The notes under the pieces are model-generated. The model was not told where the DNA came from. It saw only the letters and a program-made list of their open reading frames with translations, and did not search any database. Position numbers and translations under genes: made by a program. Positions 8,519-8,653 of a stretch of DNA of 15,676 bases are shown in pieces. Within the stretch, counting starts at the first letter, position 1, and each line of letters opens with the position of its first letter. Source of the stretch: Escherichia coli (GTDB lineage: Bacteria > Pseudomonadota > Gammaproteobacteria > Enterobacterales > Enterobacteriaceae); the NCBI RefSeq assembly GCF_003334305.1, contig NZ_QOWS01000041.1; one strand, written 5' to 3'.

Positions 8519-8560
8519 AATCAAACAGCTCCTACACAGTAAAATAATAACAATTATGTC

Positions 8561-8579
8561 AATAATGATTCTCATTATC
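8561..8579 (-). promoter_or_regulatory. Fur box of the aerobactin promoter, within the divergent iucA/shiF control region (8519..8653)
   Basis: Minus-strand sequence GATAATGAGAATCATTATT matches the Fur consensus GATAATGATAATCATTATC at 17 of 19 positions. It is immediately followed by TTGACA (a -35-like hexamer) and lies about 45 bp upstream of the iucA start. Confidence 0.85.
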
Positions 8580-8653
8580 AATGAGAAATGTTATTGTCAG
8601 AAAAATTAATTTTACAAATAAACACAATTAATACATGGTGTTGAAACATTACA

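Follow-up and report, generated by a model that had tools for sequence, protein, structure and literature searches.

Can one Fur box, set in a short gap between divergent genes, silence the units on both sides of it? The aerobactin locus of Escherichia coli raises this question. We analysed 15,676 nucleotides of E. coli DNA (hereafter the window; RefSeq assembly GCF_003334305.1, contig NZ_QOWS01000041.1) in which the operon iucABCD-iutA (547–8518, minus strand) and the transporter gene shiF (8654–9847, plus strand) are transcribed away from each other. An initial annotation, made from the sequence alone, had placed both units under a single divergent control region of 135 bp with one Fur box, and had predicted that shiF is repressed by iron together with the siderophore genes. 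The prediction bears on virulence: extraintestinal E. coli and hypervirulent Klebsiella have aerobactin as a major virulence siderophore, and a shared iron sensor for aerobactin and its auxiliary transporter would explain why the two travel together on plasmids and islands.

The proposed geometry holds. The open reading frames and the RefSeq annotation of identical plasmids agree on the minus-strand genes iutA (547–2748), iucD (2830–4107), iucC (4104–5846), iucB (5846–6793) and iucA (6794–8518). The start codon of iucA lies at 8518–8516, as it does in the RefSeq annotation of those plasmids, and the sequence reads as a Shine-Dalgarno element AGGAG at 8533–8529 (minus strand), 10 nt before this ATG. 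On the plus strand, shiF encodes a 397-residue protein that RefSeq names 'MFS transporter' (WP_000095526.1) and that matches Pfam MFS_1; its ATG at 8654 is the sole in-frame start past a TGA at 8642. Both starts, at 8518 and 8654, therefore bound a gap of exactly 135 bp (8519–8653) with divergent units on both sides. Its G+C content is 23.7%, compared with 50.6% for the whole window. Downstream of shiF come crcB, a truncated enolase gene and sitDCBA.

The 5′ end of shiF has features of its own. Inspection of positions 8636–8675 revealed no recognisable Shine-Dalgarno element for the ATG at 8654. In Klebsiella an ACG stands at the position of this ATG, and the RefSeq start lies seven codons downstream (1860–1880 of our Klebsiella locus L003). 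Conservation of the ShiF protein starts at PQKTLSCWPLAF.

The gap contains a single strong Fur box, GATAATGAGAATCATTATT (8561–8579, minus strand). It matches the consensus GATAATGATAATCATTATC at 17 of 19 positions, the figure given by the initial annotation, and at 16 of 19 on the plus strand; because it is near-palindromic, it reads almost equally well in both directions. The box is embedded in two overlapping dyads, TTCTCATT-GAT-AATGAGAA (8587–8569) and AATGA-GAA-TCATT (8576–8564). No other site in the window comes within three mismatches of the 19-bp consensus, and a match of this kind is not expected by chance (0 of 200 dinucleotide shuffles). Its distance to the ATG is 42 bp for iucA and 74 bp for shiF, the latter close to the 75 bp estimated earlier. 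Towards iucA, a consensus scan finds a weaker Fur-like match (12–13 of 19) at 8540–8558. Towards shiF, the same scan finds no second box, in that no site in 8586–8653 reaches 12 of 19. A text search of the literature for the 19-mer returned unrelated papers only.

Elsewhere in the window, the next-best consensus match (15 of 19; GCTAATGATAATTATTTAC, 15374–15392) lies upstream of sitA. Adjoining it is a perfect 8-6-8 inverted repeat, AAACATAG-N6-CTATGTTT (15353–15332), that resembles an MntR site; the two elements agree with the known control of sitABCD by iron and manganese. In CFT073, sitA has a Fur ChIP peak (PMC7157518). Two further matches of 14 of 19, at 154–172 (downstream of iutA, near an IS1 end) and at 10667–10685 (GATATTGTTAATTTATATC, between crcB and the next open reading frame), are probably chance occurrences in AT-rich spacers.

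Which promoters does the box cover? The best match in our promoter scan points towards iucA: a −35 hexamer TTGATA (8581–8576), a 17-bp spacer and a −10 hexamer CATAAT (8558–8553) with an upstream TG, together matching 10 of 12 positions. We take these minus-strand elements as the likely core of the main iuc promoter, P1. The predicted −35 (8576–8581) lies in the Fur box and does not vary among the sequences from E. coli, E. fergusonii and Klebsiella, and the predicted −10 (8553–8558) is kept as CATAAT, CAAAAT or TAAATT in every E. coli and Klebsiella lineage examined. Computationally, then, both core elements are overlapped, the −35 by the Fur box and the −10 by the adjoining site. The P1 layout in the ColV-K30 papers reportedly agrees with this assignment.

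The initial annotation had chosen a different hexamer, TTGACA, as the −35 overlapping the Fur box. That hexamer is indeed present (8557–8562, minus strand) and shares 2 nt with the box, but its promoter role is probably wrong. TTGACA has no −10 partner at 16–18 bp; its best partner is TACTGT at 15 bp, a pairing that would place the transcription start inside the ribosome-binding site. Nor is it conserved: E. fergusonii reads TCTTCA at this position, and two Klebsiella lineages read TCGACA and TCGACT. We conclude that TTGACA is probably not a promoter element. The published account of P1 (PMC3788343) has two Fur-binding sites lying over the −35 and −10, and our assignment matches that description; the P1 −35 is thus inside the Fur box rather than at its edge.

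The promoter of shiF is harder to place. Sigma-70 matches on the plus strand are weak, and the scan returned three sites where 1.1 were expected, chance matches being common in a gap of 24% G+C. The best plus-strand candidate, TTCTCA-17-TGtTATTGT (8569–8597; −35 at 8569–8574, −10 at 8592–8597), matches 8 of 12 positions and has an extended TG. Its −35 lies inside the Fur box, one base from the P1 −35 on the opposite strand. The window, CFT073 and E. fergusonii all keep this candidate. Klebsiella does not; its best match (TCAACA-17-TGaTAAAAT) sits 9 bp further along and remains in contact with the box. The −10 of the E. coli candidate falls where the gap is least conserved (48% identity to Klebsiella). 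Another pairing, TTAATA-16-TACAAT (8628–8655), was rejected: its −10 overlaps the ATG, transcription would start inside shiF, and it is absent in Klebsiella.

The transporter gene of Cronobacter, Pantoea and Duffyella has a predicted promoter directed at it, TTTACA-17-TGcAATATT, which is well conserved and whose −35 is 12–13 bp from the box, and the predicted iucA promoter there, TTGCCA-16-TATCAT (TATTAT in P. piersonii), has a −10 that overlaps the box. A conserved sequence in Cronobacter and Pantoea, TGGCAAC...TTTGCA, was considered as a sigma-54 promoter and dismissed, its GG-GC spacing being one base too long; it reads well as a sigma-70 promoter with an extended −10. At all nine loci compared, the predicted −35 elements on both strands lie within the single box or at most 13 bp from it. 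For E. coli, the best candidate would place the −35 of the shiF promoter back to back with the −35 of P1. If TTCTCA does belong to the shiF promoter, one Fur complex would cover both −35 elements.

Does shiF respond to iron and to Fur? Published work on sequence identical or very close to the window indicates that it does. The window is collinear with positions 4739–20414 of plasmid pS88 (pECOS88, NC_011747.1), from which it differs at three of 15,676 positions (5517, 12186 and 12849), and the gap is identical. By qRT-PCR on pS88, iron depletion of LB induced shiF 7.7-fold and iucA 45-fold; induction of shiF was about 14-fold in serum and in urine, and 17.7-fold in a fourth tabulated condition (Lemaitre et al. 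2012, PMC3438092). The kind of measurement that the initial annotation had suggested for shiF is therefore already in the literature. Lemaitre et al. reported shiF to "share the same Fur box" (PMC3438092), a statement repeated by Genuini et al. 2019 (PMC6918656).

The role of Fur itself has been addressed in CFT073 by ChIP-seq and RNA-seq (Banerjee et al. 2020, PMC7157518). At 135 bp, the gap of CFT073 is as long as that of the window; it has an identical box and six substitutions (8520, 8533, 8583, 8602, 8639 and 8652). In the supplement (Table S1), shiF (c3628, 'putative aerobactin export') appears with the genes under direct Fur control, with ChIP-seq summits of 331 for shiF and 341 for iucA (PMC7157518). 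The motif table gives the same 19-mer, GATAATGAGAATCATTATT, for both genes (PMC7157518). Expression of shiF relative to wild type was 32 in the fur mutant, 1 in the ryhB mutant and 32 in the fur-ryhB double mutant, and iucA was derepressed 119-fold in the fur mutant, all values for the chromosomal CFT073 allele rather than the plasmid allele studied here (PMC7157518). Transcription of shiF that stayed unchanged without Fur, which would have spoken against co-regulation, was thus looked for in CFT073 and did not occur. The shared Fur-controlled region is real, the interpretation of iron-repressed co-expression is supported, and both are already known from this published work.

On this evidence we regard positions 8519–8653, with a probability of about 0.88, as the known bidirectional Fur-repressed control region in which one nucleating box silences both units. 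When iron is sufficient, Fe2+-Fur would bind the high-affinity, near-palindromic box at 8561–8579, which contains the P1 −35 TTGATA, and would also occupy a secondary site next to it, across the −10 CATAAT. Fur would spread from the box towards shiF through the AT-rich DNA, and its occupancy would obstruct RNA polymerase both at P1 and at the divergent promoter of shiF. Under iron scarcity, Fur would leave, iucABCD-iutA and shiF would be transcribed together, and ShiF would raise the amount of aerobactin that reaches the medium. The mechanistic question is a small one: the site of the shiF promoter, and its repression by one box at a distance of 74 bp from the gene. Simple occlusion is not guaranteed unless the shiF promoter abuts the box or Fur spreads, because the core of the box ends 74 bp from the ATG.

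Published footprints suggest how far such spreading might reach. Chen et al. 2007 cite a Fur footprint on the ColV-K30 aerobactin promoter (Escolar et al. 2000) that covers 103 bp, positions 291–393 of M10930, with 13 predicted Fur sites in it that account for 93% of its length (PMC2189734). Their model uses the de Lorenzo footprint segments 347–370 and 365–393, at the end of the footprint nearest iucA (PMC2189734). Since the footprinted sites overlie the −35 and −10 of P1, the M10930 numbering should run towards iucA, and the additional stretch of about 56 bp should then lie on the shiF side. Position p of M10930 corresponds to about 8930 minus p in the window, an approximate conversion. By this conversion the secondary Fur site occupies roughly 8537–8560 (minus strand) and covers the P1 −10 and the predicted transcription start, its footprint positions being taken from PMC2189734 and PMC3788343. 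On the same approximate scale, the 103-bp footprint would cover about 8537–8639, nearly the whole gap, with lateral spreading of Fur as far as about 8639. Any shiF promoter up to about this position would then be occluded.

The shiF side of the gap also contains a conserved AT-rich block of 38 bp, AAAAATTAATTTTACAAATAAACACAATTAATACATGG (8601–8638), which emerged from alignment to two Klebsiella lineages. The gap as a whole is 70% identical to Klebsiella, but unevenly so: identity is 84% in the Fur box (8561–8579), 48% in 8580–8600, 84–87% in the block and 47% in 8639–8653, compared with 65–67% at the third codon positions of shiF. Between E. coli and Klebsiella the block is therefore as conserved as the Fur box, a comparison that rests on two related lineages and gives modest support; it is not recognisably conserved in Cronobacter or Pantoea. 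The block may serve as promoter or 5′ leader of shiF, belong to an extended Fur operator, or do both. We hold only tentatively, and consider rather doubtful, the broader idea that it is a distinct and previously undescribed cis element, whether a core promoter for shiF, a structured or regulatory 5′ leader, a platform for Fur spreading (with a promoter 30–60 bp away), or the site of a second, for example oxygen-responsive, regulator. An imperfect palindrome centred on AAATTAATTT, with 28-nt arms (8586–8613 and 8602–8629) that are 75% complementary, overlaps the block; it may be chance in AT-rich DNA.

Could the box act on iuc alone, with shiF responding to iron indirectly? RyhB, another iron regulator, or local transcription and supercoiling from the strong P1 promoter might in principle produce such a response. 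The 74 bp that separate the box core from the ATG, together with the absence of a strong plus-strand promoter overlapping the box, would fit this explanation, as would the smaller induction of shiF (8–32-fold) than of iucA (45–119-fold). However, loss of ryhB leaves shiF at the wild-type level, and the fur-ryhB double mutant is derepressed exactly as far as the fur mutant (PMC7157518). In addition, shiF has a ChIP-seq peak and the motif that it shares with iucA, and is classed as a direct target (PMC7157518); the divergent pair with its one box is conserved across six genera, and the footprint is said to span 103 bp (PMC2189734). An indirect response is thus very improbable.

A more serious question is whether direct repression works through the block rather than at the box. 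The shiF core promoter might lie inside 8601–8638 rather than back to back with P1, and be repressed only by Fur that spreads some 50–60 bp along an 'unusually long operator', or that binds weak sites in the block; derepression of shiF would in that case set in at a higher iron level than that of iuc. We think this sub-mechanism has appreciably less than an even chance. It would account for the identity of 84–87% in the block against 48% in 8580–8600, and for fold-repression of shiF below that of iucA; a TTTACA hexamer is present at 8611–8616, and the long footprint with its 13 predicted Fur sites (PMC2189734) also speaks for it. Yet no pair of hexamers in the block keeps the A2 and T6 of a −10 in both E. 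coli and Klebsiella, the stretch from 8586 to 8653 lacks any match of at least 12 of 19 to the Fur consensus, and transcription that began within the block would give a leader that is very short and lacks a Shine-Dalgarno element. The block might instead bind a second regulator, such as an oxygen-responsive or nucleoid-associated factor that recognises AT-rich DNA and modulates shiF, iuc or both on top of Fur. Conservation equal to that of the box without a Fur-consensus match, and the imperfect palindrome, would suit such a site. In Shigella, ArcA-dependent anaerobic repression of iuc has been reported. Aerobactin synthesis needs oxygen (PMC7157518). Nevertheless, a palindrome that is just 75% complementary in DNA of 24% G+C could be chance, the block is lost from view in Cronobacter and Pantoea, and a promoter, a leader or an extended Fur operator accounts for it more simply. 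We therefore consider a second regulator unlikely.

Co-regulation would be consistent with a role of ShiF in the aerobactin pathway, as the initial annotation noted. ShiF matches Pfam MFS_1 twice (residues 18–228 and 223–391), as expected of a major facilitator fold made of two six-helix halves. A search of NCBIfam with ShiF gave no specific equivalog, only a generic MFS superfamily match far below the cut-off. In two independent shiF deletions, secreted aerobactin fell by about 50%, intracellular aerobactin stayed the same and growth in low iron was slower (Genuini et al. 2019, PMC6918656). These results support a role in the pathway, and are indirect evidence for transport of aerobactin or a precursor by ShiF. 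The coding sequence of shiF also contains a 24-nt inverted repeat (9212–9278; 96% complementary, 19-nt loop).

The gene neighbourhood in other genera hints at a further possibility. In Cronobacter and Pantoea, a gene for a siderophore-interacting protein directly follows the ShiF homologue on the same strand (2492–4584 of our locus L005, 2525–4606 of L009 and 2492–4570 of L010). The siderophore-interacting protein family includes ViuB-like ferric-siderophore reductases. By analogy with this neighbour gene, the transporter family may act in uptake or recycling of ferric siderophores rather than in export.

The window as a whole is a module bounded by IS1, with perfectly complementary 77-nt inverted IS1 ends at 1–77 and 15600–15676, and contains iutA-iucDCBA, shiF, crcB, an enolase (eno) fragment and sitDCBA. 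Inverted repeats of 41 nt (10023–10063 and 11634–11674; 90% complementary, with a run of G) enclose crcB, an open reading frame of 89 residues, a C-terminal enolase fragment (10948–11379) and the remnant of a Tn3-family transposase, so that this region (10023–11674) looks like the relic of a Tn3-family element or cassette. Perfect hairpins of 22–23 nt lie downstream of iutA (414–474) and of crcB (10108–10161). An Rfam scan of the whole window returned no matches, and hence no fluoride riboswitch upstream of crcB. RefSeq marks iucD of pS88 as 'frameshifted' over a span equivalent to 2774–4107; the iucD open reading frame here is intact (425 residues, 2830–4107) and 56 nt shorter than that span. 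Strain S88 makes aerobactin despite this mark (PMC6918656).

How widespread is the arrangement? The 601 bp around the gap are at least 99% identical in 778 plasmids. Among 5426 complete E. coli genomes, a 321-bp stretch comprising the gap and both gene starts has a match in 1812, either of plasmid type (at least 99% identity) or of chromosomal type (90–95% identity); most of its length is present in 1809, and every full-length match among those listed has iucA beside an MFS transporter gene. We compared nine loci from six genera: the plasmid and chromosomal alleles of E. coli, E. fergusonii, two Klebsiella lineages, Cronobacter, two Pantoea species and Duffyella. All nine have the divergent pair of iucA and an MFS gene with a single Fur box of 16–17 matches in 19. 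The homologues share about 56–83% amino-acid identity with ShiF in the two groups for which we measured it (Cronobacter and Klebsiella).

Set against known systems, the window is closest to pS88 (Lemaitre 2012; Genuini 2019) and CFT073 (Banerjee 2020), whose shiF-iucA regions show no difference of substance from it. The promoter-operator of pColV-K30 (Bindereif & Neilands 1985; de Lorenzo et al. 1987; Escolar et al. 2000) has the same iucA and the same Fur-box 19-mer. There too, the −35 and the −10 of P1 are covered by a primary and a secondary Fur site (PMC2189734, PMC3788343). The 19-mer contains the HinfI site GAATC of the classic pColV-K30 protection assay. The classic work on pColV-K30 is said to have treated the region as the iuc promoter only; shiF was named later, in the SHI-2 island of Shigella. 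The aerobactin operator is effectively the type specimen of the Fur box, and here it stands in its natural bidirectional context. On the virulence plasmids of Klebsiella and on plasmids of Cronobacter, Pantoea and Duffyella, iucA and a ShiF homologue likewise diverge from a gap of 135–164 bp with one box of 16–17 of 19; in the latter three genera, however, the box is 19–22 bp from the iucA ATG, over the predicted −10, compared with 42 bp in the window. The enterobactin system uses a similar design, in that fepA-fes, fepB-entC and fepD-entS are also short divergent regions in which Fur sites repress two siderophore units. The fepD-entS pair even includes an MFS siderophore exporter, EntS, although ShiF is not an EntS equivalog. 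In the fepB-entC region two separately protected regions have been described (PMC2189734), whereas the aerobactin region has one strong box with, at most, a contiguous extension.
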